From assembly GCA_042852035.1 (NCBI GenBank), contig BAAFHK010000001.1, positions 480,001-512,000 of the forward strand: a stretch of DNA of 32,000 bases, in the 5' to 3' direction. Position numbers and translations under genes: made by a program. Under the pieces are notes generated by a model. That model saw only the letters and a program-made list of their open reading frames with translations. It was not told where the DNA came from and searched no databases. This stretch comes from Candidatus Saccharimonadota bacterium (GTDB lineage: Bacteria; Patescibacteriota; Gracilibacteria; BD1-5; UBA2023). Shown one piece after another: positions 5,227-30,483 of this stretch. Each line of letters opens with the position of its first letter. Positions within the stretch are counted from its first letter, which is position 1.

Positions 5227-5301
5227 TGGGATATCGCCAAGTGGTAAGGCTCCGGACTCTGAATCCGGCATTCGTAGGTTCGAATCCTACTATCCCAGCC
5301 A
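5227..5301 (+). tRNA. tRNA-Gln, anticodon CUG, with encoded CCA
   Basis: Cloverleaf read by eye: acceptor TGGGATA/TATCCCA (U1:A72, as in bacterial tRNA-Gln), D arm GCCA-AGTGGTA-AGGC, anticodon arm CCGGA-CTCTGAA-TCCGG (anticodon CTG), variable loop CATTC, T arm GTAGG-TTCGAAT-CCTAC, discriminator G plus CCA. It aligns position by position with my recollection of E. coli tRNA-Gln(CUG). Confidence 0.93.
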
Positions 5302-6863: not shown

Positions 6864-6964
6864 AGTACTCAAGTTATTATCCTACAAGACACATATATGT
6901 ATTTTTCCACTTGGAAGTCTAGGCGAAAGTGAGAGAAAAGAGCATTAAGATGCTAAAAAGCTCA

Positions 6965-8964: not shown

Positions 8965-9759
8965 TTACCCGAGTTTGAGAGCCGTTTTTCCTGTAAGCTT
9001 TTCCCATCGTTTGATGATACGAGCTATATAGACTGGATTTTGTTCTACCATCACACAGACTCGTCAGGTTTGCTCTGAAGCGATAAGCGTGCTTCATGAT
9101 CCTCAGAAGGGATCATATACTGTGTCTCATATTCGACTCGAGTTCAATATGAGTTCACGAAGGAGAGGAATAGGCTTCATCGTAGGATGAATTGTGTTCT
9201 TGCGAACTTTTGCGAATGCAAGAACACTCTTGGATTTTCCTCAGTAGAATGCATGTTTTCCATGCCAGCCATAGGCAATGAGTTCATGCTGAGGAAGATA
9301 ATCGAGCCGTCAGATAATCGCACTATCCTTGACCCATACGATGAGCTGAGTGAACTTCCATCAGGCTCGAAGCATTCCATCTCGGAGAGCGAATATCATC
9401 TTATCAGCATTAAAGATATAGCTCGCATTCTTCTCGCTGAGGTATGGAATGATTGGTCGTAGCCATCCCTCGGTGAATCATGCGTATTCTTCATCCGACT
9501 GAAATCCATCGTTTGCTATATCCACGTGCTCTTTTGTGCTTTCATTGAATCCTACTTTTGATGCCACATAGTCGATCCCGTATGGCGGATCTGTGAGGAG
9601 GAGTTCAATCCTTTTCCCTTTGAGGAGAGCATTGAGTGACTCGGTATCTCGAGAATCGGCACAAAGAAGGGTATGTTCTCCAAGGAGAAATCTATCTCCA
9701 TAAGCAATAGAAGCATCATTAGTTGAGTTTTCTTGCTGTATTTCCTGTAAGTTGTTCAT
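8965..9759 (-). CDS. DNA methyltransferase, beta class (N6-adenine or N4-cytosine), 264 aa
   Basis: ATG 9759 to TAA (complement of 8965-8967). Motif order is IV before I: LLTDPPYGI, then HPTMKPIPLLRELILNSS and VYDPFGGSGSTLIA (two Gly from TGA). The C-terminal tail IIKRWEKLTGKTALKLG is paralogous to the upstream gene. Confidence 0.88.
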
Positions 9760-11023
9760 AACGTTTAATAATTAGGTCTATAAAAATGGGTTCATGTTCC
9801 ATGAGGACAGCTCTTCGCTTAATCTGTTCACAGGCGATGAGCGTACTTCCAGATCATCCGAAGAGGTCGATTACCGTATCTCATACCTTTGTACATCGTT
9901 TTAGGGGCTTCTCATGGAGTGTTGGAGGTTTTTCCGTTGGATGCTCATACTCTCCGACGGAGAGTCGTTTCGCGAGCCAAATATCGAAAAGGTCGATGAT
10001 ATCTTCGAGAACTCTATTTCCGACTCAAACTTCTTTATCCAGCACCTCATGAAGATTTCGAAATTCTGTAGAAAGAGAGGGTTTTCACTTCGTGCCATAG
10101 ACACATGGCTCATATGCTCGGTTGAAGGCGACATTTGGTGTAGCATTCATATTATTTTTGATCCAGAGACATACCCTGCGGGGAAGTATCCCGAGTGACT
10201 CATAGAGAGACTGTATGAGTCCGATCATGTTCGGATCACACCACATGAATATATGAGTATCTTTCTCGGCATATCTGAGTCCGTTGTGAAGAGCTTTTTC
10301 GAGGAAGAGAAAATAGTCTTCTTTGGACTTGGTATCATTTGTTTTCTTTCCACCATAACTTTTTCATTGACTCAGTCCCTTTGAGTAATCCAGTCAGATA
10401 TTATACGGAGGGTCGTAGTAGAGCATGGATATATTCGAATCAGGAGGGATTGTCTCGAAGAGTTTTCGTACATCCTCTTCATTGGTCGAGTCTCCGCACA
10501 TGATCCGATGCTCTCCGAGGGCATAGATATCTCCGAGTTTTGCCGTAGGAGTTACGATCGATTCAAGTTCTTTTTCTACATCAAATCCATCCTCCTCGAC
10601 TCCGAGCATATCGTCCCAGATTGCGGAGAGTTCGGAGTTATCGAATCCGACATCTAGAAGGAGTCAGAGATCAAGATCCTTCAGGAGTTCAAAGTCCCAT
10701 TCTCACGTATTTTGATTGAGTCTCAGATTGAGCTCTTTTTCTCGGTCTATATCAAGGTCGAGATATATGACAGGAACTTCCGTCATACCGAGCTCTTTTG
10801 CTACCTTGAGCCTGAAGTGTCCTCCGATCACGATATTCATGCGATCAGGATGTCGATTCGCAATAATCGGATCCACTAGACCGTATCTCGTGATACTTTC
10901 TTTTAGATGTTCAACTTGTTTCGCAGTATGTTTGCGAGGGTTGTACTCGGCAGGGTTGAGGATATCTGCCTTCACATACACTATCTCATGTGAGATATCT
11001 GGAACGATTTTGTCTTGTGACAT
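9719..11023 (-). CDS. ParB-like nuclease domain fused to a beta-class DNA methyltransferase, 434 aa
   Basis: ATG 11023 to TAA (complement of 9719-9721), joining track ORFs 10703..11023 and 10394..10609. ParB-N region: NPRKHTAKQVEHLKESITRYGLVDPIIA...GGHFRLKVAKELG. MTase motifs: YYDPPYNI, EHPTEKPPTLHEKPLKRCTKVGDTVIDLFGGSGSTLIA. The 3' end overlaps the next MTase start by 41 nt. Confidence 0.88.
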
Positions 11024-11142
11024 AAGAGTGAAATAAAAGGATAGAATTTGAGGTGTCGACTCCCCCTGATAAAAACAGTAGATATGTCACATAGGTCTCA
11101 AAACTATTTTTGAATTTTCCTTATTAATCCTCTATTTTAAAA

Positions 11143-11214: not shown

Positions 11215-12159
11215 TTATAAGAACTGATTAATAATAAAATCAATATCTTGGGTTTGTATTATTTCGGTTTCGGGTTTATCAAAATCTATAAATATGTGTC
11301 CTACTGAAGTCTTCACTGCATTTTGTTGTAAAGAATTCACTCATGAGGAATAGCTTGAACTATAATATCGTGTATCCACATCGGATCGATTCTCTTCAGA
11401 ATCTGAAGTCCTAATCTTCTCTGAAATAATATTCAAACGAGTCTTTCATCATTTTATAGTCTGAAAAAGTTTTTCAGAAAATGAAGTCTGAAGTCAATGG
11501 TGAGGCGCTAAGAGGTAGTCGACTCAGTCATTCATAAGAAGACTTTTAAATTCAGGCTTATTATCAATTAAGTATTCCATTCAGGATTTGAGTATGTCTC
11601 AAGGTATAAGTACAGTTTTATCTCAAACTTTAAAAAATAAAACCAAGCTTATATTATTAGCGTATCAGGAACTGATGGTAATATCAGATTCACATATTCA
11701 TGGTGGAATATAAAAAAGTGAGATATGTGGGATATCGGAAACTAAAGGTGCGTCTTGAGTGAACGGAATTCTCGTATTGCGCATATCACTTAAAATTATA
11801 TTTTTAAGATCCGTTTCTACTCAAAGTAAGTCTTTATTTACAATATGATGATCATTTTGATCGGGATGATCATTGGGGCATGTCATATAAACTCAGTGAA
11901 AATTTTCTCTGAATTTTAGATAATCACAAACATGATCTTTATCAAGATGACTTAAAAATAGTTGATTGATTAGAAACTTTCACTTATCATGACTTGTTGA
12001 TCAAACAAGAAATTTTGATTTACTTGCCAAGGGCTTGAGAAAGTTATCTACAGGAGAGAATTCGGCGTTCGCTCATAGATCAATTAAAGCTGTTCTTCCA
12101 TCAAATTCACAGTATGCAGAATGAGCTCATCATACATTAAAAATTACCAGTTTTCTCAT
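11215..12159 (-). CDS. Metallo-beta-lactamase-fold hydrolase (ComEC-type MBL-like), 314 aa
   Basis: ATG 12159 to TAA (complement of 11215-11217). It is invisible in the standard-code track because of many TGA codons. Motifs: VIFNVGGAHSAY...LIDLGAN, FLSHLDKDHVCD (HxHxDH-like), VLIPGDIL, LLAPHHGLQ (Gly from TGA). Confidence 0.8.
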
Positions 12160-12165
12160 AAAAAA

Positions 12166-12822
12166 TTAATCGTTAAAGGAAGTTAAAACAGTATTGAACA
12201 CTAAACTCTTAGCACAACCTCTCGATCTCCATAAGAATATTAGAGATAATAGTCCAAGTAAGATGGATAGAGTAGAATGACAAGCTAATATAGCAATCAC
12301 AGAAAGCAAAAAGAATGCAGTCATCATTACTCGGACAAATAGGTAACCTCTATTTACAGTCTTTATTTCATCACTTCCTCTAACTTGCGAATATAATTGC
12401 CAGAAGTAGTGTTGAGATAAGCTGATTCATGATTGAAATTGTTTACGTTTTTTTAGAAATGGAATATCTTTGTATGATTTATCGATTTCCTGTAGCTCAT
12501 TTGGGGGGATGTTGAGTTTCTCGATAATTACTCATCTCTTTTTATCTGATATAATTGGATTTCATTTATAAAGAAAAATTTCGGAAGGTCTTAGAAATTT
12601 GAAAAAGATATCAACAATACCCTCAATTTCATGAGCTATTGTTTGAAGAATCTCTCATGTAATGAATGCTACACAAAAGAATACAAAAGTATAAAAGAAG
12701 TCCAGTTTCTCATCCAGTTCGAAAGAAATTATATCTCAAAATAAAAATAGCAGAATTCATAAAAAAAATCCTCAAGGCATGATCTTTATCATAAGTTCAT
12801 CAATAGAAAATTTATCTAACAT
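12166..12822 (-). CDS. Hypothetical membrane protein, 218 aa
   Basis: ATG 12822 to TAA (complement of 12166-12168), starting 2 nt after the upstream stop. N-terminal hydrophobic segments: GFFLGILLFLFG, FFYTFVFFCVAFITG. C-terminal hydrophobic segments: VMMTAFFLLSVIAILA, LSILLGLLSLIFLW. A soluble middle region. No family recognised. Confidence 0.6.
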
Positions 12823-12824
12823 AT

Positions 12825-13634
12825 CTAAAATAGGTTATTAAAGCTCTTGTCCTGAAATTTTATTCTTGCGGTTTCTTTTGCTCAAAAATCAAATTGAGGG
12901 TTGTACTTCTTATTTCCAAGCATTAATGGTTCTCACTCAATTTGTAAAAATTCACACATTTCTTCGACAAATCTTTCTTTTGCCTTTCGAAACTTACTTG
13001 AGGCTTGTTCGTTATCCTCCCAACTAAACTTCCTTCCACCACATATTAGAAGAAGTATTTCTCAGGATTGAGAAATAGTTTTTGTAACAAAGTCCACAAG
13101 TCACATATCAGAAATTGTCAGAAATTTTATTTGCTTTCAGCTCAAAAAAATTTCAATTCTAGAATTCTCAGGATTTTTTTCGTCATATTCTACGAGATAG
13201 AATTTTATATTTTCCCAATTTGTTCATTCTGGAAGGGGTAGTGCTAGTTTTGCAAATCCTCTCTTATGATCAAGATGATTCTCAATTTCTTGCGTATGAA
13301 AAGCCATACTTGCCTCAATAAGCTTCTCTTTCTCTTCAGAACTATGATTAGGATATTTTTCTGTAACAAATTGTGAGGCTTGAGCCCTAAGATTACTAAT
13401 GGTAGTCATTCCATTTCCTTGATAATCCTCTCATACCCTCAATGAAGTCGTCTCGACTTTAGGTAAGGATATAGTTGGGATTTGAGAAGGTATCGATGTA
13501 TGGGTGGGCACAGGAGAATGTCATACAAATCTCTCTCATGATGGAATCGATGGAGTTCGAGAAAATCACCCACCAAAAGAGCTTTGTCATCCTCATGAAG
13601 TATTGAAAAATGCTTGTCGAAAAATGCTAGTCAT
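12825..13634 (-). CDS. Hypothetical protein, 269 aa, N-terminal extent uncertain
   Basis: Open from ATG 13634 to TAG (complement of 12825-12827), in frame with track ORF 13224..13409. The N-terminal 75 aa are Gly/Ser/Pro-rich low complexity. An alternative start is the ATG at 13409. No family recognised. Confidence 0.5.
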
Positions 13635-13881: not shown

Positions 13882-14490
13882 TTAGAAAGTATTACTTGGA
13901 AACGAGCGAACGAAAATTCATTGGATTCTAAAATCTTCGTGAAGAATTATTGGTTTATGTTTTTCATTGGTAGAACTTGGATTGAGAGAAATATAATCAG
14001 TATCATAGTGAATTCGTTTAATAGTTGCTTCATCATCGATAAGTGCTACAACTATTTGTCATTCTGTTGCCGAATCGGCTGAACGTACCAAAATAAGATC
14101 ACCATCATTGATTCCTTCATTATTCATAGAATCTCCTTTTGCTCTCAGGAAGAAATATTTATTCGTTCCATATGCAATTCTGGTTGATACAGGTATCTGT
14201 GCTTCTATGTTTTCTTCTGCAAGAATAGGAAGTCAGCAAGCAATCATTCATACTAACGGTACATTTATGGTATTTTCATTCTGATGGTCTTCCACTACTC
14301 AAAGAGATATCTTCCCATCATGTCTTACGAGATATCCTTTCTCTACCAAGCTATCTACAATAAGCTGTACTGAACGAGTAGAGGCATATCATAAATCTGC
14401 CTGGAGCGAACGAACAGATGGCACTGATCAGTTCTCCCGATAATACAAGCGAATTATTCCTAATGCTTCTTTTTCTTTTGGCTTTAGCAT
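13882..14490 (-). CDS. lexA: LexA-type repressor (winged-helix DNA-binding domain + S24 peptidase), 202 aa
   Basis: ATG 14490 to TAA (complement of 13882-13884). N-terminal region: EALGIIRLYYRENGSVPSVRSLQADLGYASTRSVQLIVDSLVEKGYL. Cleavage region VPLVGMIACGLPIL, with the scissile Gly encoded by TGA at complement 14233-14235. Catalytic Ser in KGDSM and Lys in ATIKRI. Confidence 0.85.
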
Positions 14491-14545
14491 AAAAGTAAAC
14501 AGATTACACAATAATAATACGGGTATTTTAGAAAATGCAAATAAA

Positions 14546-14568
14546 ATAACACCTAATTTTGGTATTAT
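14546..14568 (-). terminator. Weak AT-rich hairpin after the Res-like gene
   Basis: ATAACACC (14546-14553), loop TAATTTT, GGTATTAT (14561-14568), one mismatch. On the - strand it is followed by a T-rich run. It starts 8 nt past the stop at 14576. Confidence 0.35.
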
Positions 14569-14575
14569 CGATGAT

Positions 14576-17500
14576 CTAGTTATCGAATATCATCCCCATC
14601 ATTCGTCCGATATAGTCTCCATGCTGAAATATCACATGACGTTTTTCAAAGTCATCCTCTGATTCCTGTCATTTCCAGTGCTGAATAGCCTCGCGTGCTG
14701 TTACTGATATGATATAAGCGTCGAGTATGACATTCGGATCTTGGACTGGGAGTTTTTTTAGCGTCTCATGGAGACGAAGCTTCGGATTATCGAAACCATC
14801 TTCCATATTGAAGAGTCATTTTGGATCTACAAATACGATATATTGTTTCTCACCATCGATTATCCAGATTATAAAATCAGGGTAAAAATTCTGAGCCTCG
14901 AAGAATCAAACTCATTTTTTACTGAGATTTCGGAGAAGATAGAACTCTTTTCCAGCAAGGGATTCGGTATTTCTCTCATAGTAGTTCTGCATCTCGAAGA
15001 CGAATTTTCTCTCTCATTCATTGAGTGGAACAGGGGAGATCACGGCGAGTTCAGCAGGGAAGTTTTTTCCGAGGGCAAGAAGAGGACTATAGAGATGTCG
15101 ATCGAAGTGAAGTGATGTAAATCATTGAGATAACTCATGATTCTGAAATATTCCATTTTTGATCTGTCACTCGAGCTCTCGTACAGCTTGGATAATGTCA
15201 GTCTCTTCAGAAGAGACTTTCACTTCATACGAAGTGAGGAGATTGGGATGATCTTCAGGGAGAAATGAGAACTCCATCTTGTTACGATAGTAGTGTCACT
15301 TCTTCTGATTATAGAGAGCATCAAAGTAATTCTTGATCAGAGCAATCGATACATCGTTCCATGCTTTTACATTTTCATATCTTGTCTCGAGTGATACTCA
15401 CGGGATATAAAGGGTATACCATTTTGGATTCATGAAGAGTTTCTCGAGATTCTCCTTCGATATAGATACGATATTCCATGATCTATCTGCTTTGTGGCGC
15501 TCCAGCTCGAAATACATCTTTTCCCAATCGATAAATGCGAGATGTTTTTCTTCTAATATGTGCGTTTCCCTGAAATCTACACTATTAGTACTTCATCCTG
15601 TGCTTTCGATGGCTTGTACTTTTGCATACCAGTCTACTGTTACCTTAATAGTATCTTCGAAATCGAGTTCTATTTTTTCACCAGACTTCTTGAAATCAGC
15701 TCCATCTTGAATCTTGAGATATTTGAGCTTTCCGATTTCTTCTTTTTTGAAGTTATTCTTGATTGGTATGGTGATCTCGTACATATCTTCCATAGGCATA
15801 CCTTCTTCTTCGAGATATTCTCGGAATTGTTGCATATAGTCTGATCGAACTCAAAACACACATAGTGTCTCGAGAAGACTAATCTCATCTCCTCAGAGAG
15901 ATTTTTCGATGATTCCTTCACGTTTGAGATACTTGCTTCGTCTGAGCGTATGATTGTATCACTTGAGGCGTACTCATCGACCGAAGAGCTGAATAATCTC
16001 AGATCATTCACTTCTACCAATATTCATAAGTCACATCGTCGATACTCTCCAGCTCGACCATCCTTCAGTGAATTTCTTCGAACCGATGAGGATATTCACG
16101 GCGCTTCATTTTTCATTGATCTTATGGAAGAGTGACTCAGAGAAGTCCCTCACTCCAGTGATCAGTCATACAGATTCACAGAGCTTCACGAGTTCGGCAT
16201 CATCTCAGACATTGATCACGCCAAAATAATCACCATTACCAGCCTTGAGTCATATCTCTCCATCCTGTCACTTCAAGTTCTCTATATGAAGATGGGATCA
16301 TGGAGTATTACAGTTGAATATTTTCTCGAGAAAATCAGAATAGAGTCTATCGATATCATATTCACCATTTCATCGAGAGAATGATTCCTTTATAGCACGG
16401 AAATGATTACGGAAAAGTGGTCAATTCTTCCCAATAATACCATCCTGTCAGGTGAGGATATTCTTGATTGCTCATTTTGCTTTCTTTTTTTCTCCGAGAA
16501 TACTCTGGAAGAACTGCAATATCTGTATCACATCGGATACTTTAGCTTTATTCTCGGTTCGCACTGCATTTACCGTTCCTCAGACGAATATGGAGAGAGG
16601 TTTTTCTATCTGGAATTGTTTCGCGACGGTTTTCTCTTTCTCATAGATGAACATCTGCTCATAGAATGTCATCATCGATCCGATGAGATATCCATACGTC
16701 ATATTCTCATCGTCAGTATCAGATATATTGAGGATTCGGTAATCCTTACCATATCCATCCTCGTAGAAATATTTATACGAATAGTCTATAAGTACGGATT
16801 TTGAGTATTCACTGAGAAGTTCAGTTCGTTTCTTTCCGCTCGATGCATGGATAGCCTGTCCGAATGTGGCACTATACTCAAAAGAGAATCCATTTCTCGA
16901 TAGTGTTGCTCGTTTCTTTTTCCATTCTTCACCACTTGCTCCACGATGTCATTCATCGACGAGTACGAGATTATTCCCTTCGAATGACTCTATCGCGACG
17001 GTCTTATCTCCAGCCTTATCTTCGAGCTTATGGATATCGATGATATCGATAAATCCCTTACGACTCGTAGAAGATGCTCTCTTATCGAAGAGTTCTCACC
17101 AAAATCATGAATCCTTGAGTTCTTTTTCATGCTGGCGAGAGAGTCACTCATTTGGAGTGAGTATGATTATTCTATTGAGTGAATCATGCTTTTCATACTC
17201 TTCTAAATAGTGTTGATATTGGAGTATATTCATGTGCATGATGAATGTCTTACCACTTCCAGTTGCGCTCCAGAAAGCCACCTTCGAGAGTTCTTCTAGG
17301 GTAAATAGTTGAATATCCTTAAAGGCACCACCTTCTTCATCTTGGAGCTTGGTGAGATAGGTGTTCAAGTCATTTAAGAGCTTATCCTTGTTCGCGAAGT
17401 ATCGATCAAGATATATCTCAGTAAAAAGGAGAGAAAGATATTGGAAATATTTCCATCGTAGTTTTTCATGGCGCTTGCTCGATATAGTCTCTGTATGACG

Positions 17501-17749
17501 AAAAATATTCTCATCATATTTTCTGAGAAGAATTTCTGGTATCTCATCACTCTGGTAAAATCTATCGATCAGAGTACTGAGATATCGAGAATTTCACTTT
17601 TCATTCCATCATTCGAGCTTGCTATCCTTGAGATCCTTGGTCAGTGAGGCGAAGTCATTGAGCCCAAAGAGGGAAAGGAGCCATCTATGAAGTATGAGAC
17701 CATCTTTGAGTTTTATTGGTGCTGATTTTGTGGTTTTCTGTGGTGGCAT
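14576..17749 (-). CDS. Res-like SF2 (DExH) helicase with a C-terminal PD-(D/E)xK-type nuclease motif, 1057 aa
   Basis: ATG 17749 to TAG (complement of 14576-14578), in frame with track ORFs 17144..17368 and 15593..15835. About 30 in-frame TGA by hand count. Motif I: FWSATGSGKTF. Motif II: LVLVDEGHRG (Gly from TGA). Late helicase motifs: [42 protein letters not shown]. C-terminus: FYPDFIIWIIDGEKQYIVFVDPKG. Confidence 0.88.
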
Positions 17750-17761
17750 ATAAATTTTTTA

Positions 17762-19126
17762 CTAAATGATTCTTATTCAGAAAGCTTTCCTTTTTGATTT
17801 ATCTCATTCTGATTCTTTAATGAAGAAGTATACTTTTGTTCATATCTTTATCAGATTAATCAAATTATTATCAGAGTCTCTATTTAAAATAAAATATACT
17901 GATGATTTATCTTGCATTCAGATGAATCAGTTTATTCATCTCTCATTATTGTTCATTATTTTTACAACTTCTCCTTCGAATCGTTCACTTCTATTTTTAG
18001 GTATATCCTGTTGTTTGTTTAGAGATTTCCAGTACTTTATCAAGTCATGCTTTATTACATCAAAACTTTCATCTTTTACTTCACTTCATTTTATTTTTCA
18101 TGATAAATTTTGTGGAATTTTCCACCCTTCACGTTTTCTTATGAGAGAAGACAGTATATAATGTTTTTCTGCAATTTCATCTTCTTTTTCATTAATTAGT
18201 AAATCTCCAAGTAGGATCATTACTCAAACTTTAAATTCCAAATCTCCATAATTATTCATTGCACGAATAGCATATTCAAATGCCTGTTTAGTATCTCACG
18301 TTAAGACATATATTTCTGCTAATTCTTTTTCAATAAACCAATCTTTCTTTTTTTCATAAATTTTTAGAAGTTTTTCAAGTGCAAGTTCAGTATTTCAGAG
18401 GTGTTGATTTGACAGTGCGATTCTCCGAGAAAACCAGATATCATTTCAGTTATGGAATTTCTTGATTATATCCAATGCAAGTGTGGATAACTCGGAACAT
18501 TCCTCATATTTTCCAGATTCTAGAAGCGCCTTAGTATAATATCAAAACCATTTTTCTTGATCTGATGCTAATTCAACTTCCTTCTGTTTCCCTTTGATGG
18601 TTGCCTCAATCATTTCATTTCTCGTAGAGAGATTCTCATATGGTATTTGCTTACATATCTCACAGATTTGTTTCCAATGTCACTTTTCATCATGGTTATC
18701 CAGTATTGATTTAAATACCTGGCTAAACGCTGATTGAGAAAAGTCATCTTTAATATTGCTTATATTTTTTAAGAAAAGAGTAATATTATTATCACTTATC
18801 AGATTTGAATCACCGATGTCTGATTTATTTTTAATAGATGCTTTGAGTTCATCGAAAAGTATCCATCCGTAACTTGTGAGGATTCTACTTGATAGCTTCT
18901 CATAAATATTTATAGAGAATTCGTCAAAGAATGAATGGGTAAAACGATGGTTCTTTGTTTTTCTAAGTGCAGTTAGTATGTTCGCAATCATATACTCATC
19001 TTTTCTTATCTCATCTGCGAAATCCGATTTATGAGACTTGAAATATGAAAGTACCTCATCAAAATTTTTATCTTTGATAAGTGATCAAATATGCGAACTA
19101 AAACTATAGTATGTATCCATAATCAT
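17762..19126 (-). CDS. Hypothetical protein: helical-repeat (TPR-like) body + C-terminal OB/cold-shock-like domain, 454 aa
   Basis: ATG 19126 to TAG (complement of 17762-17764), in frame with track ORF 18680..18991. It starts 5 nt after the NERD-helicase stop and ends 12 nt before the Res-like start. Repetitive helical region: YYTKALLESGKYEECSELSTLALD, ELALEKLLKIYEKKKDWFIEKELAEIY. C-terminus: RFEGEVVKIMNNNERGINGFIGMQDKSSVYFIL...IGTKVYFFIKE. The domain calls are my inference. Confidence 0.6.
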
Positions 19127-19131
19127 GAAAG

Positions 19132-22020
19132 TTATCCTAAAATATTCAAGACTTCTTGAAACTTATTCCATATTGCAATATCAGAATAATATAAAGCTTT
19201 TATACTTATAATTTGATTCTTTCCATTATATCGACACTCAATATCCAATTCTTGCTCATCTTGATATAACTTAATGAAATCTTGGTAATTATTCTGACCG
19301 ATTTGAACGATACGGAAATTATGATCGGAAGCAGTCTCCCATTTTTGATATATTGTTCGTTTCCAAATATCTTCCACATCATCGAAGTTATATTTTATAT
19401 TTCATAAAACTTTATTAAGTTCATCAAATAGCCATTTTTCTCAATTTTTGAGGATAGGAAGTTTGAACTTTCATTTTTTATCAAATCCAAATGCTAATGT
19501 GGCAAGTTGTGTTCATTTCATGAATTGGATATGAAGCTCCCATCATATGACTTCAGTTGACTTCAGTGAATAATTTGAATCTAGATGTTTCCGAATAAAT
19601 ACTATAAATTCTTCTATCTGATCTTCTTTTCTTATATCGTCCCCTCATTTTACTTGCATGATATATCTTTTTACTCGCTTATCTGCACTAGCAGCATCTT
19701 CTATGAGTAACTCATCTAATGGAGATATCGGTGAGTAGTTTATGAGATAAAGATTTTTTATTGTACGAGATATACCAGTATAGAGCCACTTAAAGTATTC
19801 AATATTATTCTTTCATAGTTCATACTTCAGATCAAATATAACTGTTTCCCAATGAAATGAAAACGTTTTATGCACGGTCATTGCCCATCAATATTGTAGT
19901 CGAAGAGTATTTTTATATTTCCCAAACTTAGAACTTGGATCTTTTCTGAGTTTATACTGGATACTTAACTTGAATTCCTTTTTCACATCTTTCTCAAGTC
20001 TCTTTTTTTCTTTTTCCTTTGTTTCTATTTTTCATTTTACCTTTTCTCATTGCTCTTTTTGTAAAGATAACTCGTCTATTTCATGAACTACGTTAATATA
20101 ATTCTCATCTTTTAATAATTTTTGGTATTCTTCAGATTCCTCGAATTTTCATCCTTCTTCTTTTATGAGTCAATTAAGAAAGATATGATAAGCCTGTTCC
20201 TCATCTTTTGATATATCACCTTTCTCACTGAGAAGACTATTCTCAAGTATTTTTACATTTACACTACTATTTGCTCTTTCTCACTTAAAGCTTACATCTC
20301 TAAAATAGAGTTTGGTTTTTCTGCCACTCTTTGTTTCTATAAGGAATTCCTCTCTTGGTTTAATATCTGTTATAGTTCACATCATTCATTTATCGATTTT
20401 ATATACAGAAGCAAATAAATCATTGCTTGTAGTCTTCATTTGATTCATCGTAACTACTCTATCATTGATATTGATAGAATCTCACGAGTGAAAAATATTT
20501 TTCTTTATCCACTTATTTTTTAATACAACATCTTGGTTTCAATATGCTAATATTACCGTATCATAATTTTCTACTGACATTCTTTCCTTGAGTAAATCTA
20601 TGGTAAAATTTTTGTCATCATTTTTCAGATGATGTATTGTATTTACTACCTCTGGAATCTCCATTTCTGAATATACATCTCAGACGATTTTTTCTTTTAG
20701 ATATGACGTAACATTACTAATAGCTGTTTTACTTTTCTGGATTCTTAGTTCTCTCATTGTTGGGATAAAGCCATAAGAATCATGAATATATTTTCAATTA
20801 AGTGCAGATTTTTCATCTTGAATAAGATAAGGATCTCAAATAAAAATTACCTTAAAGGCAGGTTTTTGCTTTATAAAGTCAACGAAGTCATGAAGAAGTC
20901 TTCCAGTTCAAAATCGAACATCATCAGACTCAAATAAAACATCACTTATAAGATGCGCTTCATCTATAATATATACACACTTATCAGCGTTATCATTCGT
21001 ACCTACTCAAATCAATTCTTTATCTATTGATACATCTTCTTGATCTCATTCATTATTTGTATCGCTAGTTTTTTCATGGAGTCATCAAGAGTATATATAC
21101 GAATAGAGACTATTCACTTTATATCAGCTTGCTTGATTGGTAAGACTATGAGCAACTCTTTGTGAAAATGCAAGAACATCAACCTGCTCATATCAAAATC
21201 TGTAGCTTTCATCTATGATATCCGAGATCAAGAAGCTTTTTCAGGTTCATGTCATTCAGGAAAGGATAAATATGTGAGATTCTGATTTGAGAAACTCACC
21301 AATATCTGATAACACTATCTTTTGATCATCAGTCAACTGCATATTGCTTTTCTCTGTAGAATTTTTTTCATTTGATGGTGTTCATACTCAGTATTCTTCC
21401 TTTGATTCATATGCATCAGCCATAAAATATAGCTTGAATGCATCAAATCCATCTTTTGATAGACATACAGATTCATCCTTTATGGATATAAAATCATTTA
21501 TTTTTTCTAGATAATTTGATTTATCTACAATCCCAAAGAAGTTTGTTTGATTCCCAGGTATATGTCAAACGAGTTCTATGATTTCTTGAAAGCAAACAAT
21601 TCGACGAACTCTATGTGGATCAAATATGTTTGGAAGAGTAATATGTTTTGATATGTGATCTCTATACAGTCATGTGAGCTTCCTTTTTTGATGGAAAAGC
21701 TGATCAAAAGGACTTAGTCTCGCTCCTCATTTAATATAATCTCATGTTTTTTCGCTTATCCATGCCCCTGTTTGGAAGTCAGATTCTTCTGGTAGCATGA
21801 CTTTTCCGCTATAGTTTTTGAAGTCTATAATACAAACAACATGCTCTGTTATAAGTAGAGCATCGATTTGTAGCAATGGTGCTTCATCTACTTCCGAAAA
21901 TCATATGAGTAAGCCATCTTTATTATGTTTTTCAAAAAGCTTTGCGAGATTATATGAAAACTCCCTAAAGAATGAGTTCTCATATCACCTTGAGGCTGTT
22001 CATTTTCTGATTTCAAGCAT
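19132..22020 (-). CDS. NERD nuclease-related domain fused to an SF1 (RecD/UvrD-like) helicase, 962 aa
   Basis: ATG 22020 to TAA (complement of 19132-19134). I checked it line by line as one open frame. NERD region: QIDALLITEHVVCIIDFKNYSGKV...SPFDQLFHQKRKL. Walker A: ILSGMTGTGKSF, with all three Gly encoded by TGA (complement 21256-21258, 21247-21249, 21241-21243). Walker B: CVYIIDEAHLISD. Also VIFIGDPYLIQD, and the C-terminal helicase motif GWAMTVHKTFSFHWETVIF...LYTGISRTIKNLYLI. An extra roughly 150-aa tail is unassigned. Confidence 0.85.
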
Positions 22021-22050: not shown

Positions 22051-25000
22051 CTATATCTCGAACATCCTCTTTTTGAATTCTTCTTCGATGAGTATGACTT
22101 TCCATGTCTGTTCTCCTGTCTTCATATTTTCCACACTGTTATCTCCATTCACATAGATACGATCGAATTCTGTATCGAGAGGATTGTAGGCGCTCTTCTG
22201 GAGGAAGTTATTGAGATCATCATTGCTATGTTTCTCGATATTTCTCCAGACTATGAGTGTGCGTTCTCCATCGAGTGTTCTTCACGTCACGACACGGTAT
22301 CCTCGAGCCTCATAAGTATGTTCGACGACGAGCCCGATGAGATAATTGAATGTCTCGACGAGATCCACACGAGTGACACGAGTTTCATTGTCTCTCGTGA
22401 TACGCATCTCGAAATCAAATGGATGAGCAAAGTGATCCACAGAGAGGATGCTTCCCTGAGATTCTGTATCGAGCATATACTGGAGCATATAGTCTTCTCG
22501 GAATTCTGCATTTTCTGGAGCGAAGAGGACTCATTGCTGAGTTTCTGATCTCTGGAGTTTCAGGTTATTGAGCGCATCTTCATAACTCTCGAGTCTGAGA
22601 TACTTGAATGCATGAGATGATCCCTTTCTCGAAACTGGCTTTCATCATTTCCAGTCCTCACTATAGATAACCTTCTGGATACGAGGCTTGGTAACAGTAT
22701 TGAAATACTCTCCCATCTCTACGAGGATATATTTTCTCTTTCCCATATCTCCACCATCTTTTGTATCTTCACGATTTAAATTGATAACTGAGTGTCAGGT
22801 AGTTCCAGATCATGCAAAAAAATCAAGAATCAATCAAGTAGGTTTATTATTTAGTCATGCATCAATACAGTCTTTAACTGTATGTATTGATTTAGGATAA
22901 GTAAATAGACTTTTTCAGAACATTTCATTCACTACTACACTTCAATAACTATTTGCTGAATACTTTGCTCACGTCCATACTGTCTTATAATTGAATTTTA
23001 TTTTGTAACGAATAATGTCCCAAGTTCACTTCTTTTTATCGTATTCTGCTTTTAGTTCATCCTTAATTGACTCTACAGTTTGTCTAGCAAAAGTCCACTT
23101 CCTTTCTTCTCCTTGTGCTCAAATTGGGTAAACCTCAATAATTCCATCATCCTTCTGCATATTTATTCATGAGGGATGAAACTCATCAGGAGATACCTCT
23201 CAAAATCATATAATTTCTCAGTTTTTTATATAGACTGGATAAAAACAATTTGCCGCATCTGTTCTTAAATGCGATCAGATGGATACATTTCTCAATGGTC
23301 TAACATCTGGATTATCAATACGATCTTCTAATCAGATGAATTTTCATGGTTTTGGATACACGAAATATGCAAATTCATGTGTAAATGAAAAATTTGATCA
23401 CTGTTGACCTGTTGGATTGTGTACAACAGATATACAATTCTTCTCGTGTTCAGGATAATTCTGTGATAAAATTTGCCCTAATACTTCCTGTTCCACTTCA
23501 TCAATTGCTACAATAAGGACACCATTTCTATCTTCAATATTCTTAGCAATTCAGATTCTATTATCCATCAAAGAGAGCCAAGATGAGTGCTTAAATGTAT
23601 TTTTATATACTATCTCAGATGACTGAGCGTTATAAGGAGGATCGATATAGATGCATTTTACCTGTTCTCTGTATCTCTCTTGGATGAGATTTAGAGCTTG
23701 AAAATTCTCACTATTAATTATGAGACCATCTAGCCATTCATCGAGATTATGATTTTCGCTGATTTCTCCGATGAGTTTGTTTTTCCATGATTCATCGAAA
23801 TGCTTAGTATCGAGTACGAGATATGGATTGTTCTCGAGGAATTCACGGGAGAGGGGGCGAGAAAATCCATCGATCTCATCGATAGCAAAAAGGGAGATCC
23901 AGTCATCTATCTGAGCCTCATTGGTACGGATATCATCATAGTATGCCTCATCGATACGGTCGAGTGTGATACAGTATCCTGTTTCGACGACCATCTTTTT
24001 CTTCAGGAAGAGTTTTTTCTGGAATTCTTCGAGACTTGAAAGGAAAGTGATGACCTTTTCTCCGATCAGCTTCACAGCCTTGATCATCGCGAGCGATGCG
24101 ATGAATGTCTCTGGAGAGCGAGTATCGATATCATCGATGTAGAGAATCTCATTCTTGATATAAAAATCGAGCTCTCTCGTGAGGAATCCATAGAGATCCT
24201 TGTGGATGAAGTAATCAAAAGTGTTTCGTTTTACATAGTCATTGATATGTCTCTGGATGAGAGTACGAGACTTATCTTTCTCTGTAGGTGATGGAGAGAT
24301 ACACTCAGCGTACTCACTCGGGATAGTATCTCGGATAGTAGTGAAAGCTTCAGTAATGAGAGCATCTTGCTTCACTCACTTATCCATCGGTTCATACATG
24401 AAGTAGACATGAAGCTCACCATCCTTTTCTTCGATGGTGTGTGCTGGTTTTCCTTGTTCTATGGATGAAGGTGATGGTGTATATATCTTGAACTTTCTCT
24501 CCTTGTCTCATTGAGCCTTGTTGTTGTTTTGCTCGGTACTTGCCTCGACGAGTGTGAATACGACAGATTTTCCGCTTTCAGTTTTGAATCGGTAATTCTT
24601 AAAAAATTCACTTGTCTTTATATAGTACTGATCAGCATTTGCCCAGTGAAGCTTCACTTCTTCTCACTCGTAGGGGATAGCGTAGACATCTTTCTTGTAT
24701 CGCCTCATCGAGATGAAGTCTCCAGAATCAAAATATCGTCTGAAAAAGCTCGTCAGGTGAGAAAATACTTCATTCTCGAGAGCAGTGAGATCACTTGAAT
24801 TCGCCATTTTTTCTCTGAGTTCTCGTACTTTTGGGAGACTCTCAGGATCGGCACCAAGAGCTTTAGCATTCGCTATGGCATCATGAAGCTCTTTTTCGAG
24901 GCTTCACTTATCAGAAGTTCCTGCAGATTCGAGAATAGTCTTCACTTGAGGGATGAGATCCTTCTCGAGAAAAGTCTCTATCTCATTTCGACGAGAGTTC

Positions 25001-25092
25001 ATGATACGGTAGATACCGAAATCAAGATCAGCCTGATCGAGCATGAAGCATTCTCTGAGTGTGGCTATGAGGCGCTGGTAGTTTGATTCCAT
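22051..25092 (-). CDS. Large Mod-like beta-class DNA methyltransferase (N6-adenine/N4-cytosine type), 1013 aa
   Basis: ATG 25092 to TAG (complement of 22051-22053), in frame with track ORFs 24904..25092, 23551..24375 and 22282..22488. Motif [12 protein letters not shown] is at complement 23632-23643 (about residue 484). [14 protein letters not shown] and motif I LILDFFAGSGTTGHSV follow about 280 aa later. The long N-terminal region [32 protein letters not shown]... and the C-terminal region ...[19 protein letters not shown]... are unassigned. Confidence 0.9.
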
Positions 25093-25112: not shown

Positions 25113-28082
25113 TTAAACGATGGTAAAGCGAATCGTGAAGAGATGTTCTTCGGTGATCTTCTCGTGTTTTCGAGCCTTCAGGATATCGATCATTCTGTCT
25201 CGTTCCGCGAGGATCTTATCTTCGAGTTCGAATATCTCACGACGGAGCTTTTGCTGTTCTTTGGTGAGAGTTTGGATTTTTTGCTGGAGTTCGAGCTGAT
25301 CAGTGGGATTTTCTGATTTTTTTGCCTCTCGAGTGTGCTCTTTGATTTTTGCCTTCGTTTCCTTGAGGGCTATTTCGAGAGATTTAGTATGATCATCAGC
25401 CCATTTTTCCAGTTTTTCGGTCTCTTCTTGGAAGTAGACGGCATTTCTCTTATCAGTTCGTTCTAGGAGCTTCTGTCGTTCTTCGCTGTAGGATTTACTG
25501 ATACTTTCTCCGAGAGGACTATCTCATGAGATCACTCTTCACTCTTTTCATCATACTGAGAGGATTTTCTCTGAGAGTTCTTGATCGAGTATCTCTCCAG
25601 TGTCATTGATGGTCGTGAGGACAAGTATATCTTCGCTTTCGAAGGCATCGATAGAGAGCTTCGTGAGTCTCATCCAGCCACTTTTTCCGACGAGGTTTTT
25701 CACGAGTGATATATTTTTTCCGCTCTGAGTATAGTCAATGGTGATTTCTCTTGATTCAGTCTGATATCCGAGACATTCAGTGATCACGTTTTCAGCGAGA
25801 GGATGTCCGATACGATAGATATTCGCATCTTCGATGTTTTTCCCGATACGATATGGTCAGAGGAATATCTTTTCTGGTGAGTATGGATTCTTTTTGAGTT
25901 TGAACGAATAGTCTTCAGTGAACTCTGCTTCTTCAGCAAGTGCGAACTTGGTAACATTCCAGAGCCAGTTCTGGTATTTATCGAGTGAGGCATCAGCTTC
26001 ATTCTTTCGAAATCGGAGCTTTTGAGCTACTTCTTCATCGAAGTTCGAGAGAAGTGTTTGTTTTGCTGAATCAATAGTTTCAGTGATTTCTTGATCGAGT
26101 TCGAGCTGGAGTTGATCGAATGCATGACTGATCTCATTCTCAGTACGACAGTCACCATAGATCTTCGCGATACGGCGCTCGAGATCCATACCATTTTCGA
26201 TACTTCCGAGTACTTCATCGGAAGCTCCGAAGACACCTTCGAAGAGCTTGAATTTCTGAGCAAGGAGTTGATATACTCTCTGATCTGCTTCGTTTGATTT
26301 GTTGAGGAAGTTAAGGACTACGACATCAGACTTTTGACCATATCGATGACATCTTCCGATTCTTTGTTCGATACGTTGTGGATTCCAGGGGAGATCATAG
26401 TTGATGATGAACGAACAGAACTGGAGATTGATACCCTCAGCGGCTGCTTCAGTGGCAATCATGATGATTGCTTCATCTCGGAAATGTTCGACGAGAGCGG
26501 CTCGCATATCTGCTGTCTTTGATCCTGTGATTTTATCTGTTCCAGCATGTTTTTCGAGCCAGTCTTTGTATACTTTCTGGGATTCAGGATCAGCATTTGA
26601 TCCATTGAAGAGAACTATCTTTCCAGCGTATCCATTCTCCTCGAGGATACCCTTCACATAGAGCTGAGTTCTGGTGCTTTCTGTAAATATAAGTGCTTTC
26701 TTGAGTGGGAATTTATGATCCTCACTTCTTTGGCGTATCTTCTCGAGTTCTTCGAATCCCTTATTAAGGGCAATCGTGAGTTTTTCTCACTTAGAATTTT
26801 TCGATATTCCTTTTGCGAGACTCTCACACTGAGTGAGAAATCCGATTTCATCTTCGATTTTCGGAATATCGAGGAGTGTGAACTTCTTTTTCTTCTTTCC
26901 ATCCTCTCATACTTCTTCATCTTCCTGTTCACTCCATTCCTCAGCAAATTCATCATATTCTTCGAAGTTGGTAGAGAGGGTATCTATTAGACTCATATCC
27001 ATCTCTGGAAGCCGTACTTCGAGTGATTCTGTTTTAATAGTATCGATGAGAGTATAGAGCTTGTTGATGAGCCCTGTAAATGTATCAGAGATGGCATAGG
27101 TAGATGATGCCATAAGTCTTCTCATGATGAGTTCCATGAGTGATCTCTGGCTTGCTGGGAGGGCATAGAGCTCTTCTCGTGAGAGATAATCTGAGAGCAT
27201 CTCATAGAGTTTTTGTTCGTCTGGAGTCTGATAGAATTCTTCTACGAGAGCGATACGATTGGTATACTTGATATATTCGAGTACTTGTCTTCTGAGTGTT
27301 CTCTTGCATACAGAACGAAGTCTCGCCTTGAGATCATCGAATGCTCCAGTATCAGAAGTATTTTCAGCTCGTGAAAATTGGGACTTAAAACTCTTCTGAT
27401 CACCAAATACATTATCATCAATAAAACCTACGAGACCATAGAGTTCGAGGAGTGAATTCTGAAGGGGAGTGGCTGTGAGGAGTACTTTTGGTCTTCCCTC
27501 GAGCATTTCTTTGATAGCTCGAGCGATTTTGTTTCATGGCTTATAGACATTACGAAGGCGATGTGCTTCATCGATGACGACGAGATCCCATTCGATAGCT
27601 TTTACATATGCTTCTTTTGAGCGAACGAATTGGTATGATGCTATGACGATATTTTCCTGTATGAAAGGATTAAAATTTCACTTTTTTGTATTCTCATTGA
27701 ATGATTTTGATTCGAGAATAGTGGAACTCAAGAAGAATTTATCTTGGAGTTCTTGATTCCATTGCTTTCTGAGATTTGCTGGAGCAATGATGAGGATTTT
27801 TCTTTTTCGTTCTGCCCATTTCTGAGAGAGAAGGATTCATGCTTCGATAGTTTTTCCGAGTCATACTTCATCAGCGAGGATAGCTCACTTCGATAATGGT
27901 GACTGGAATGCGAAAAGAGCCGCTTCTACTTGGTGCGGATTGAGATCTACTTGTGCATCGAAGAGCGAGGCAGTAAATTTATCGAGACTGTTTGACGGAC
28001 TTCGCTTCGAGAGCTCGTGGGCGAAGTACTTGGCATGATATTTTGTAAAATTATTCACGATCTGAATTGTATAGAAAATCAT
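25113..28082 (-). CDS. SNF2-family helicase/translocase, 989 aa
   Basis: ATG 28082 to TAA (complement of 25113-25115), joining track ORFs 27885, 26907, 25857 and 25551. 12 in-frame TGA by hand count. Motif I: ILADEVGLGKTIEAG (Gly from TGA at complement 27861-27863). Motif II: LVVIDEAHRLRN, LLTATPLQNSLLELYGL. Helicase-C: INLQFCSFIINYDLPWNPQRIEQRIGRCHRYGQ. Coiled-coil C-terminus. Confidence 0.92.
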
Positions 28083-28218
28083 GGTTTTACCAAATAAAAC
28101 AGTGTGTAGATATACTTTTTCAAAAATAAATTATTAATAATACTTTTTTATTCTATATAAGCGTTTATATAAATTAGGATAAACTTGATAAAATAGTGTT
28201 TCTAAGTATATTCCTGAA

Positions 28219-28365
28219 GCCAGAATCTTATTTATTTTACTTACTTTTTAGTTGCCCATAAGCGATTAGAAGGGAGGATTGTATCCTCACCTCCTTTTGT
28301 TGCTTATGGCACTAAATGAGTAAGATTCTGGCGAATCAACGGGGATCGATCCTCCCTTTTTGTTT
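28219..28365 (+). promoter_or_regulatory. Structured leader or small RNA-like element with nested inverted repeats and a terminator-like hairpin, upstream of the GmrSD gene
   Basis: Perfect 12-bp inverted repeat: GCCAGAATCTTA (28219-28230) and TAAGATTCTGGC (28321-28332). It encloses GCCCATAAGC (28254-28263) / GCTTATGGC (28302-28310) and GAGGAT-tgt-ATCCTC (28274-28288). Next comes the hairpin GGGGA-tcga-TCCTC (28341-28355, one G-U pair) plus a T-run (28357-28364). SD-like AAGGGAGGA and CCTCC anti-SD-like strings occur repeatedly. Confidence 0.35.
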
Positions 28366-28419
28366 CGCCAGATACGATGATTTTGGTATTTACTTCTGTA
28401 GATACCTTTTTTGTTACCT

Positions 28420-30483
28420 ATGCAACAGCTCGTCAATATCAACAAGATTTTCAAGAATAAAATCTTCCGAATTCCAGACTACCAAAGATGATACGCCTGG
28501 CAAATCCGACAACTCAAAGACTTTTGGGAAGACATAAACTCTCTCGAAGAAGGGAAGAATCATTATACAGGAGTTATCTCTCTTGAAGAAGTAAAGAAGG
28601 AAATATGGGAGCAATGGCACGAGGATAAATGGGTGATTGAGAATAAGGGATATGATGTATTCTTTGTGGTTGATGGACAACAAAGAATGACGACTTGTGT
28701 AATACTTATTCAAGCCATTCTCGATGTAGCCAAAACACTGCGTGAAAATACTTATGAAAATAATGAAGATTTTGAACTTTGTGATACAAAACTTTCAGAT
28801 ATTAAGAGAGATTATACAGTCATAGAAAAAAGTAATGGAATACAGCGATCTTATATTTTTGGTTATGAAAAAGATAACCCGAGCTATGAGTTTCTCAAGA
28901 CGAAAATATTTAATGAGCACTCTTCTTCCAATCAGTGACAAGAAACGATATACACCCAGAATCTCGAGAATGCAAAAAAGTTCTTTGTAGATAATCTCCT
29001 TGAGATTCCTGAAAATGAACGACTCGAAAAACTCGAGGTCATATTTCGAAAAGTTACAAAAAATCTCCTCTTTAATGAGTATGTTATCGAAAGTGATATC
29101 GATGTATCGGTAGCATTTGAAACCATGAATAATCGAGGGAAGAAGCTCAGTGATCTCGAACTTCTCAAGAATCGTCTCATTTACCTTACTACATTATTTT
29201 CTGTAGATCAGTCAGATAAAGATGAACTCAGAAAACGCATCAATGATGCTTGGAAAGAAATATACTTCCAGCTTGGACGAAATAAGGAGAATCCTCTTAA
29301 TGATGATGACTTTCTGAAGGCTCATTGGACTATGTACTTCAAATACAGTCGAAAAACAGGAGATGATTATATTCACTTTCTGTTAGATGATTACTTTTCT
29401 CCAAAACGAGTACTTAAGGAAATCGATGTGGCTATCAAGATAAAAGAAGCTCAGGAGGTTCGTGATGAGCTTCTTGATGATGTCGAGGAGGATATTCCAC
29501 TTGAAACATCTCAAAAAGAAAAGAAAGGATTAGAAATCGGGGATATATCTCTCTTTGCTGAAAGTATACAAAAAGCCTCTAGTGCTTGGTATGATACCTA
29601 TAATCCCGAAACAAATCAAAGACTTACGAGCGATGAAAGAAAATGGCTCGATCGACTAAATCGACTCTGAATGGGATATTTTCGACCTCTCATCATGAGT
29701 TCATTTCTCTCGAGAAATACAACAGCAGATGAACGAGTTTTATTATTCAAAACCATAGAAAGGTATATATTCATTGCGTTCAGACTTACACAGATGCGAT
29801 CCAATTATGGAAATAGTGAGTTTTATAATCTGAGTCGAGATCTCTACTACGGTAATACAACTATTGCGAATATTGTAGAAGCTCTCGAGGAGCGAATCCA
29901 ATTTTCATTCAATGACGATGGATCGTTTAAAATCAATGCTTTCTATGATTTTATCAGCAATAAGTTCAGATTCTGAGCAAAAACTGGATACTATTCTTGG
30001 GGATGACTTCGATACTTTCTCTACGAGTACGAACAATATCTTCTCGAATCTTCGAAGAATTCTACTGCAAAAATCACATGGGAGAAGTTTACCAAAGAAC
30101 AGGATATGATATCTATAGAGCATATTCTTCCTCAAACACCCGATAAATCTTGTTGGTCACATTTTGTATCACAGTATAGTCCTGAAGAAATGAATTACTT
30201 TACGAATACTCTCTGAAATCTTCTCGCTCTCTCACAACCAAAAAACAGTAGTCTCCAAAATGATTGTTATGAAAATAAGCGAGTTGACGGAGAAAAGAAT
30301 CGATGATATTTCAATGGATCATATTCGGAATGTAGAGTTGCTGAGACTTATAAGGAATGGACTCCTTATTCTATAAAAGAGCGAGGACTTGAACTCCTCG
30401 GATTCATGGAAGAGAGATGGAATATTAATCTCGGGGATGATACTACAAAGATGAAGTTATTGAATCTTGAGTTTTTAGATTAA
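28420..30483 (+). CDS. GmrSD-family Type IV (modification-dependent) restriction enzyme-like protein, DUF262 + DUF1524, 687 aa
   Basis: ATG 28420 to TAA 30481-30483 in frame 1, joining track ORFs 28633, 29125 and 29671. DUF262 signature: FRIPDYQRGYAW (Gly from TGA 28489-28491) and FVVDGQQRMTT. DUF1524-like His-Me region: ISIEHILPQTPD...TLGNLLALSQPKNSSLQN. Confidence 0.9.

Follow-up and report, generated by a model that had tools for sequence, protein, structure and literature searches.

The stretch of DNA analysed here (hereafter, the window) comprises 32,000 nucleotides from a Candidatus Saccharimonadota bacterium (contig BAAFHK010000001.1, positions 480,001 to 512,000), and it contains an operon of five co-oriented, minus-strand genes in the order SNF2, Mod, helicase, partner and Res, separated by intergenic gaps of 20, 30, 5 and 12 nt. 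The first gene (25113-28082) encodes a DrmD-like SNF2 ATPase of 989 aa (SNF2-rel_dom, 2e-38; Helicase_C, 5e-20; DrmD, 2.4e-199). It is followed by a Type III-like Mod DNA methyltransferase of 1013 aa (22051-25092; N6_N4_Mtase, 1.7e-21; MTase_III, 1.9e-233) with DPPY and FAGSG motifs, and the operon ends with a Type III-like Res helicase-nuclease of 1057 aa (14576-17749; ResIII, 2.6e-10; REase_III, 1.8e-199) that carries a C-terminal PD...DPK motif. An N6_N4-class Mod and a Res helicase-nuclease thus flank the two central genes, as expected of a Type III restriction-modification (R-M) system, and the extra SNF2 gene distinguishes the operon from classical Type III systems. Hma was rejected as an identity for this frame: the sole HmaA match was a secondary one on the SNF2 protein (3.3e-49, far below DrmD), and no HmaB or HmaC was found. 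The subject of this study is the pair of genes at 17762-22020, which a previous reading of the window from its letters alone (the sequence-only reading) had rightly placed between Mod and Res.

Both genes become visible only under an altered genetic code. With the standard bacterial code the longest open reading frame (ORF) in the window is 274 aa, and the region 17762-22020 contains many stops on both strands; those in the minus-strand frame are all TGA. When TGA was treated as a sense codon, the window's ORFs of 150 aa or longer rose in total from 2,509 to 18,325 residues. In alignments with standard-code homologues, glycine is the most frequent residue in the TGA columns of the helicase (402 of 936 cells) and also in those of the partner (149 cells), tryptophan is absent from the commonest residues in both proteins, and TGG positions align with tryptophan. 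Because the standard-code homologues carry glycine far above any other residue at TGA positions, we assign TGA to glycine, not tryptophan (genetic code 25), throughout the window. The share of TGA among glycine codons ranges from 0.24 to 0.89 across window genes, with its peak in an unannotated gene at 11215-12159 (17 TGA versus 2 GGN). Two close partner homologues from a public protein collection (rows P0122 and P0123 of alignment A3) show W where all standard-code relatives show G, which we attribute to code-25 contigs having been mis-translated, with TGA as tryptophan, in the source assemblies.

Under code 25, a helicase ORF of 962 aa with 39 in-frame TGA codons runs from 22020 to 19132 (stop codon 19134-19132), and a partner ORF of 454 aa with 15 TGA codons runs from 19126 to 17762, starting 5 nt past the helicase stop. 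Three of the TGA codons lie in the Walker A loop of the helicase. An NCBI record for a metagenome-assembled genome of Candidatus Altimarinota (Gracilibacteria, Patescibacteria group) holds identical proteins, HHAS10_04960 (helicase, 100% identical) and HHAS10_04950 (partner), and the latter uses the second ATG, which gives a partner of 452 aa and a gap of 11 nt. The partner length and 5-nt spacing given in the sequence-only reading therefore hold for the code-25 ORF, whereas the alignment of homologues favours the second ATG as the probable start of the gene.

The helicase gene (19132-22020) was delineated from its code-25 ORF, Pfam and PADLOC matches and HHAS10_04960, and it encodes a putative effector in which a NERD domain, a superfamily 1 (SF1) helicase and a tandem TBP-like tail follow one another. 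Pfam returned TBP-TOTE (1.7e-10), AAA_30 (3e-7), NERD (1e-6) and UvrD_C_2 (2.9e-5) together with a PIF1 match, and PADLOC returned PDC-M16A (8.9e-83). The NERD, AAA_30 and UvrD_C_2 matches bear out the fusion of a NERD domain to an SF1 helicase that had been proposed for this protein, and the peptides quoted in that proposal are present. The NERD nuclease, of the PD-(D/E)xK type, occupies aa 1-150 (21571-22020), with the above-cutoff Pfam match at aa 49-144. Its putative catalytic residues E14, D53, D66 and K68 correspond to the E...D...DxK core of PD-(D/E)xK enzymes, and all four are invariant in an alignment of 26 sequences that, save for one 82% orthologue, are 33-38% identical to the window protein.

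The SF1 helicase core (RecD/Dda/Pif1-like; AAA_30, UvrD_C_2 and PIF1) spans aa 226-765 (19726-21345). It contains the Walker A motif GMTGTGKS from residue 255, the Walker B motif IIDEA from residue 351, GD at 395-396, TVHK at 715-718 and the YxGxSR-type motif YTGISR at 747-752, and it carries a charged helical insertion at about aa 600-700. In the same 26 sequences G255, K261, D353, E354 and D396 are invariant, and G260, G395, H717, K718 and R752 are conserved in at least 90%. When the helicase profile was run against the PDB, the matches were marginal, namely to Dda (4.6e-4) and, over 55 residues, to a 'putative deoxyribonuclease' (9kwf). Both the nuclease and the ATPase motifs of the 962-aa protein are intact.

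The C-terminal tail of about 200 aa, which the sequence-only reading had left as about 150 unassigned residues, proved to be a tandem TBP-like domain. The domain covers aa 798-961 (19138-19629). PF22721, the 'TATA-binding-like protein domain of the TOTE conflict systems', matches the second repeat (aa 895-957) with 40.8 bits against a cutoff of 27, and an AlphaFold2 model of aa 765-962 (pLDDT 84.5) shows two successive units, each made up of a helix, four strands and a helix. When this model was searched with Foldseek, the top PDB matches were to E. coli RnlA (PDB 6Y2P-6Y2S; E 6.6e-5, probability 1.0), which has two consecutive N-terminal TBP-like domains ahead of its effector domain. Comparison of repeat 1 with repeat 2 by hhalign gave a probability of 89% (E 2e-6), which marks the two halves as homologous to one another.

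The partner gene (17762-19126), delineated in the same way from its code-25 ORF, Pfam, PADLOC and HHAS10_04950, encodes a TPR/DUF7017 solenoid that ends in a cold-shock-type OB fold. Pfam matched it to DUF7017 (3.5e-7, above cutoff), and PADLOC matched it to PDLC01170, described as 'TPR repeats containing protein fused to cold shock-like domain (OB-fold)' (3.5e-45), and weakly to PDC-M16B (1.1e-7). The helical-repeat region covers aa 6-371 (18014-19111). In the AlphaFold2 model (pLDDT 86.7) residues 4-369 of the 452-aa form make up a helical solenoid with one conserved beta-hairpin within it; this hairpin and an ELASDxExW motif lie near aa 172-193. Residues S186, E189, W191, H223, N226, W229 and R233 are invariant across homologues. 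A Foldseek search with the complete partner model found TPR proteins and nothing else, the top matches being TPR superhelices (E 1e-6); the OB fold was therefore established through a separate profile search. This fold lies at aa 383-453 (17768-17980) and was modelled as a five-stranded barrel with a helix between strands 3 and 4 (b1-b2-b3-helix-b4-b5). A profile of the last ~77 residues of the partner matched cold-shock domains, namely those of Unr (3.3e-5), CspB (1e-3) and the cold-shock-domain-containing Cmr6 (1.3e-3), and the RNP1-like GFI and RNP2-like YF motifs are kept. The model, Foldseek and the profile search thus all support the TPR-like helices and cold-shock/OB-like C-terminus that had been read from the letters.

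To place the pair in a wider context, we surveyed one genome per species and obtained 80 helicase loci from other species. Helicase homologues fall into at least 443 clusters; all 120 of those listed carry TBP-TOTE (PF22721), and nearly all are full length with NERD. The 80 loci span Bacteroidota, Ignavibacteriota, Campylobacterota, Gammaproteobacteria, Cyanobacteria, Actinomycetota, Bacillota, Patescibacteria and others, and the distribution of the helicase across phyla is patchy. No relative of Mod or Res lay within 10 kb of the helicase in any of these 80 loci, and weak SNF2 matches were seen in only 2. The partner position, by comparison, is nearly constant: among the 62 loci in which the helicase is complete, about 59 have a co-oriented ORF that begins -56 to +24 nt from the helicase stop. 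A scan of 45 partners and downstream ORFs, the window partner counted, found DUF7017 in 42. The other neighbours of the pair in 18 genomes are heterogeneous, comprising housekeeping genes, integrases (4 of 101 ORFs) and a few helicases, with no recurrent methylase among them. Taken together, these gene neighbourhoods indicate that the pair is an autonomous, tightly coupled unit that is conserved across phyla and independent of any methylase.

We also examined the Mod-Res junction itself in 72 related loci that have both genes. In most of them Mod and Res are adjacent, less than 100 nt apart, and 22 of the 72 junctions (~30%) hold 0.3-4.6 kb of co-oriented genes. The domains found in this cargo include AAA_21/AAA_15 ABC-type ATPases, DUF4276, DUF3696, GmrSD_N, Fic, PLDc_2, DUF3800, RhuM, YhcG, AIPR, AbiGi and Schlafen/AlbA_2. 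Among close relatives the slot is empty in L088 (Mod identity 74%), filled by a 486-aa Schlafen-ATPase in L172-L174 (75%), by the helicase-partner pair in L001 (83%) and by an ABC ATPase, DUF4276 and a PHP-ATPase in L087 (61%). Since the junction is empty or otherwise filled in relatives, the slot does not require the pair, nor does the pair require the slot. The closest operon relatives appear to be recoded too, and they adjoin serine recombinase genes. The slot protein of L172 (8902-10362; also in L173 and L174) combines Schlafen AlbA_2 with HATPase_c_4, and a recombinase gene lies beside that operon.

The pair is compositionally foreign to the genes that frame it. Its GC content is 29.5-30.6%, its GC content at third codon positions is 0.24-0.25 and 65% of its glycine codons are TGA, whereas the corresponding values for SNF2, Mod and Res are 39-42%, 0.39-0.41 and 27-46%. 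A conserved recombination sequence was sought at the Mod-cargo and cargo-Res junctions and none was found; the 30-nt spacing after Mod recurs, but its sequence differs between cargos. Thus, the suggestion that the two genes are an independent module embedded in an R-M-like operon was upheld, in that the pair recurs in dozens of species without SNF2, Mod or Res and occupies a slot whose content can be swapped. The checks proposed along with that suggestion gave the same picture, with the TPR and OB assignments upheld, the pair widespread elsewhere and E14, D53, D66 and K68 invariant.

Two families that have been predicted in silico correspond to this pair. TOTE conflict systems, named for TPR, OB, TBP and Effector, are outlined in PMC12458937, which cites Aravind, Iyer and Burroughs 2022 (Annu Rev Biomed Data Sci), and the Pfam families linked to them are PF22721 (TBP-TOTE), PF22707 and PF22708 (S1CSD-TOTE) and PF22860 (DUF7017). 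The window pair has a TPR/DUF7017 protein with a fused S1/cold-shock OB fold, a TBP-like domain, a linked effector and conserved adjacency, and the predicted NERD nuclease and SF1 helicase lie on the same polypeptide as the TBP-like domain. Payne, Hughes, Fineran and Jackson (bioRxiv 10.1101/2024.01.29.577857) predicted the 145 PDC candidates in silico by 'guilt-by-embedding', starting from genes that lie inside BREX, DISARM and Type I R-M operons. One of these candidates, PDC-M16, is a cassette of two families (CAS_00083, FAM_00097>>FAM_00119, listed with number 218; bioRxiv 10.1101/2024.01.29.577857), and in the window adjacent genes match PDC-M16A and PDC-M16B. The window pair therefore belongs to TOTE/PDC-M16, which has already been described in silico, and does not make up a new category of system; the embedding of defence genes in R-M-type operons has likewise been described before.

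The window pair shares with TOTE systems the TPR/DUF7017 protein that ends in an S1/cold-shock OB fold, the TBP-like domain fused to an effector and the conservation of two genes side by side, and it differs from them in several respects. Its host uses genetic code 25, it is nested in an SNF2 and Type III-like R-M operon, and it lacks an RNase H domain, which many TOTE systems are said to have. Moreover, the window partner is a short form with a single cold-shock domain, and the Pfam S1CSD-TOTE profiles gave no match to it at E <= 0.01, while many orthologous partners are 650-870 aa long with S1CSD-TOTE domains (S1CSD-TOTE-1 or S1CSD-TOTE-2 being present in 12-15 of them). With respect to PDC-M16, the PDC-M16A match is strong, the partner carries both PDC-M16B and the TPR-cold-shock profile, and the pair is nested in a multi-gene defence system like the founding examples. 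The founding hosts, however, are BREX, DISARM and Type I R-M, and the host here is a Type III-like R-M system with an SNF2 gene.

Based on these results, we consider it probable that the pair is an autonomous TOTE/PDC-M16 conflict module, directed against viruses or plasmids, that sits as exchangeable cargo in the Mod-Res junction of the SNF2 and Type III-like R-M operon. In such a module the partner would act as a sensor or regulator: its cold-shock OB fold may bind single-stranded nucleic acid derived from the invader, while the conserved DUF7017/TPR surface may hold the effector, probably through the TBP-like tail of the latter. RNase HIII has a TBP-like substrate-binding domain, and by analogy the tandem domain of the tail could dock on a duplex or on an RNA-DNA hybrid. 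Once licensed, the SF1 motor would translocate on DNA and the NERD nuclease would cut it. The partner may either activate or restrain the effector. Co-orientation and the 5-30-nt gaps suggest that the pair is co-transcribed with the R-M genes, and a shared transcript with SNF2-Mod-Res, which is probable, would give a layered defence. Scans of the operon for promoters and terminators gave nothing above shuffled controls.

Several points weigh against this interpretation. The TM-scores between the tail and RnlA are low, about 0.3, which we ascribe to the two repeats differing in their mutual orientation. The predicted defence role of TOTE/PDC-M16 rests on genomic context and domain logic: a literature search found no experimental work on members of either family, and no paper turned up in full-text searches on PDC-M16, DUF7017, TBP-TOTE or the Pfam accessions. 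In addition, the pair is tightly packed with Mod and Res, and this packing is kept in the locus of the 82% orthologue, which leaves room for functional coupling with the R-M system.

Such coupling is the substance of the first alternative, in which the pair is an integrated arm of SNF2-Mod-Res, a latent back-up or 'guard' effector that is restrained by the R-M complex and freed once restriction is inhibited by a phage. Such a guard is known in the PrrC anticodon nuclease inside the EcoprrI Type I R-M operon. The co-orientation of all five genes with gaps of 5-30 nt and the preservation of this arrangement at the 82% orthologous locus are both consistent with a guard. So are the reports that embedded genes share the orientation of their host system in 96.7% of cases, where complementary or co-regulated defence is discussed (Payne et al., bioRxiv 10.1101/2024.01.29.577857), and that back-up effectors in R-M-like loci are a recurring theme (PMC12839542). 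We nevertheless regard this alternative as unlikely: in 80 of 80 species loci the pair occurs without Mod, Res or a related SNF2 gene, no methylase recurs among the neighbours of the pair, the junction of close relatives is empty or holds unrelated cargo, and the composition of the pair is foreign to that of the frame genes. The pair does not depend on a methylase, and its distribution argues against dependence on SNF2-Mod-Res; nor does that distribution lend support to the earlier idea of a sensor/effector arm against which the methylase protects. A bolder version, which seems to us more doubtful still, is that the Mod-Res junction is a dedicated co-transcribed slot exchanging second-line cassettes, with the TOTE pair wired to the R-M system as a PrrC-like guard and not a mere passenger. 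Licensing could then occur, for example, when restriction is blocked, or when Res or SNF2, in translocating, lays bare single-stranded or hybrid nucleic acid for the cold-shock and TBP-like domains to read.

A second alternative is that the pair serves housekeeping or mobile-element DNA processing (repair, replication or transfer) and not immunity, with the TPR protein as an assembly factor. Conjugative relaxases and repair enzymes of the RecD type also have AAA_30/UvrD_C_2 helicases, the element that carries the locus includes genes for a serine recombinase, a terminase-like protein and a LexA-like repressor, and integrases are found among the neighbours elsewhere (4 of the 101 ORFs mentioned above). 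We judge this improbable, given that no relaxase, replication or transfer genes recur beside the pair, that its distribution is patchy across phyla, that it is embedded in defence operons both here and in the screen that defined PDC-M16, and that its relatives combine with YprA-type defence helicases (L170; PMC12458937). Finally, the helicase could be an Nhi-type nuclease-helicase that defends by itself, the downstream gene being incidental. This alternative, which takes up the family link raised in the sequence-only reading, has the similar architecture of a PD-(D/E)xK-type nuclease fused to an SF1 helicase in its favour, but we give it almost no credence, as the helicase has no Nhi match in PADLOC-DB 2.0.0 at E <= 0.01 (PDC-M16A profiles only, the presence of an Nhi model in this release being unconfirmed), nearly every locus has the conserved, translationally coupled partner, and the TBP-TOTE tail ties the protein to a family that contains the partner.

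An autonomous TOTE/PDC-M16 module, the reading we prefer, can also be set beside other known systems. TALON (PMC12458937) likewise combines a TPR-cold-shock protein, a TBP protein and a NERD-type nuclease, but it centres on a YprA-family SF2 helicase whose RNase H domain is inactivated, whereas the window pair has an SF1 helicase; Pfam and PADLOC found no YprA-family helicase with MZB/DUF1998 in the window operon. RnlA, of the RnlA-RnlB anti-phage toxin-antitoxin system, is the closest structural match of the helicase tail, yet it has a HEPN RNase as effector and is regulated by the antitoxin RnlB, its repeats are oriented otherwise and it has no sequence similarity to the tail (17-19% identity in the structural alignment). 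Nhi shares the combination of a nuclease and an SF1 helicase in a single polypeptide and, being a single-gene system, differs from the window protein with its TBP-like tail and obligate-looking partner gene, which is conserved and translationally coupled. PrrC in the EcoprrI Type I R-M operon, BrxU in BREX and Septu in Hma are all second defence modules that lie in the same orientation between the genes of an R-M-type operon. PrrC differs in that it is almost only found embedded and controlled by its R-M host, while the TOTE pair mostly stands alone.

Homologues of the partner were also observed in other arrangements. At L170 (883-9078) a partner homologue follows a 1741-aa YprA/MZB (DUF1998) helicase and is itself followed by an unannotated 473-aa gene, a DUF1848 gene and a GmrSD gene, an arrangement that resembles the TALON of PMC12458937. 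At L169 (363-4675), from Mesoaciditoga lauensis, the helicase-TBP protein is only 780 aa long with no NERD match on record, and the unannotated 212-aa gene that precedes it may be a split-off nuclease. The pairing of partner homologues with a YprA/MZB helicase or with a NERD-less helicase-TBP protein fits a modular sensor-plus-effector logic. At L171 (121-4010) a partner homologue of 460 aa (35% identity over 61% of the query) comes directly after cas1, a BT4734-like gene and cas2, and the gene-free stretch of 3 kb after it may be a CRISPR array.

The window thus provides a well-annotated TOTE/PDC-M16 example, from a family predicted twice in silico, in an unusual host that uses code 25 and belongs to the Patescibacteria group. 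It also extends the pattern of 'embedded defence genes' known from Hma, BREX, DISARM and Type I R-M to the SNF2 and Type III-like R-M family. Experiments could make direct use of the standard-code orthologues from Flavobacterium, Pedobacter, Psychrobacter and others, and the intact motifs name the mutations to be made.

The whole operon sits on an integrated element. One end of this element is marked by tRNA-Gln(CTG) at 5227-5301, directly after which lie a large serine recombinase gene (5463-6872, minus strand) and then a terminase-large-subunit-like gene (6965-8476, minus strand). Direct repeats that could mark attachment sites were sought around the island, but only ones at chance level turned up. 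Two N6_N4-class DNA methyltransferase genes at 8965-11101, which overlap by ~40 nt and one of which has a fused ParB N-terminal domain, are of the orphan kind typical of mobile elements. Directly downstream of Res is a gene for a LexA-like repressor with a LexA DNA-binding domain and an S24 peptidase (13882-14655); the called ORF shares ~80 nt with the end of Res, which makes a true start further inside the frame probable. Beyond it are three genes with no Pfam match (11215-13634). On the other side of the operon, the 330-nt intergenic region upstream of SNF2 (28083-28410) contains several short GC-rich hairpins. A small HTH_3 gene precedes SNF2 in L001, L087 and L088, and the window has no HTH controller gene at this position. 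Divergent from SNF2 is a GmrSD-type (DUF262/DUF1524) Type IV restriction gene (28411-30483), and with this gene beside the operon the island stacks at least three defence modules.

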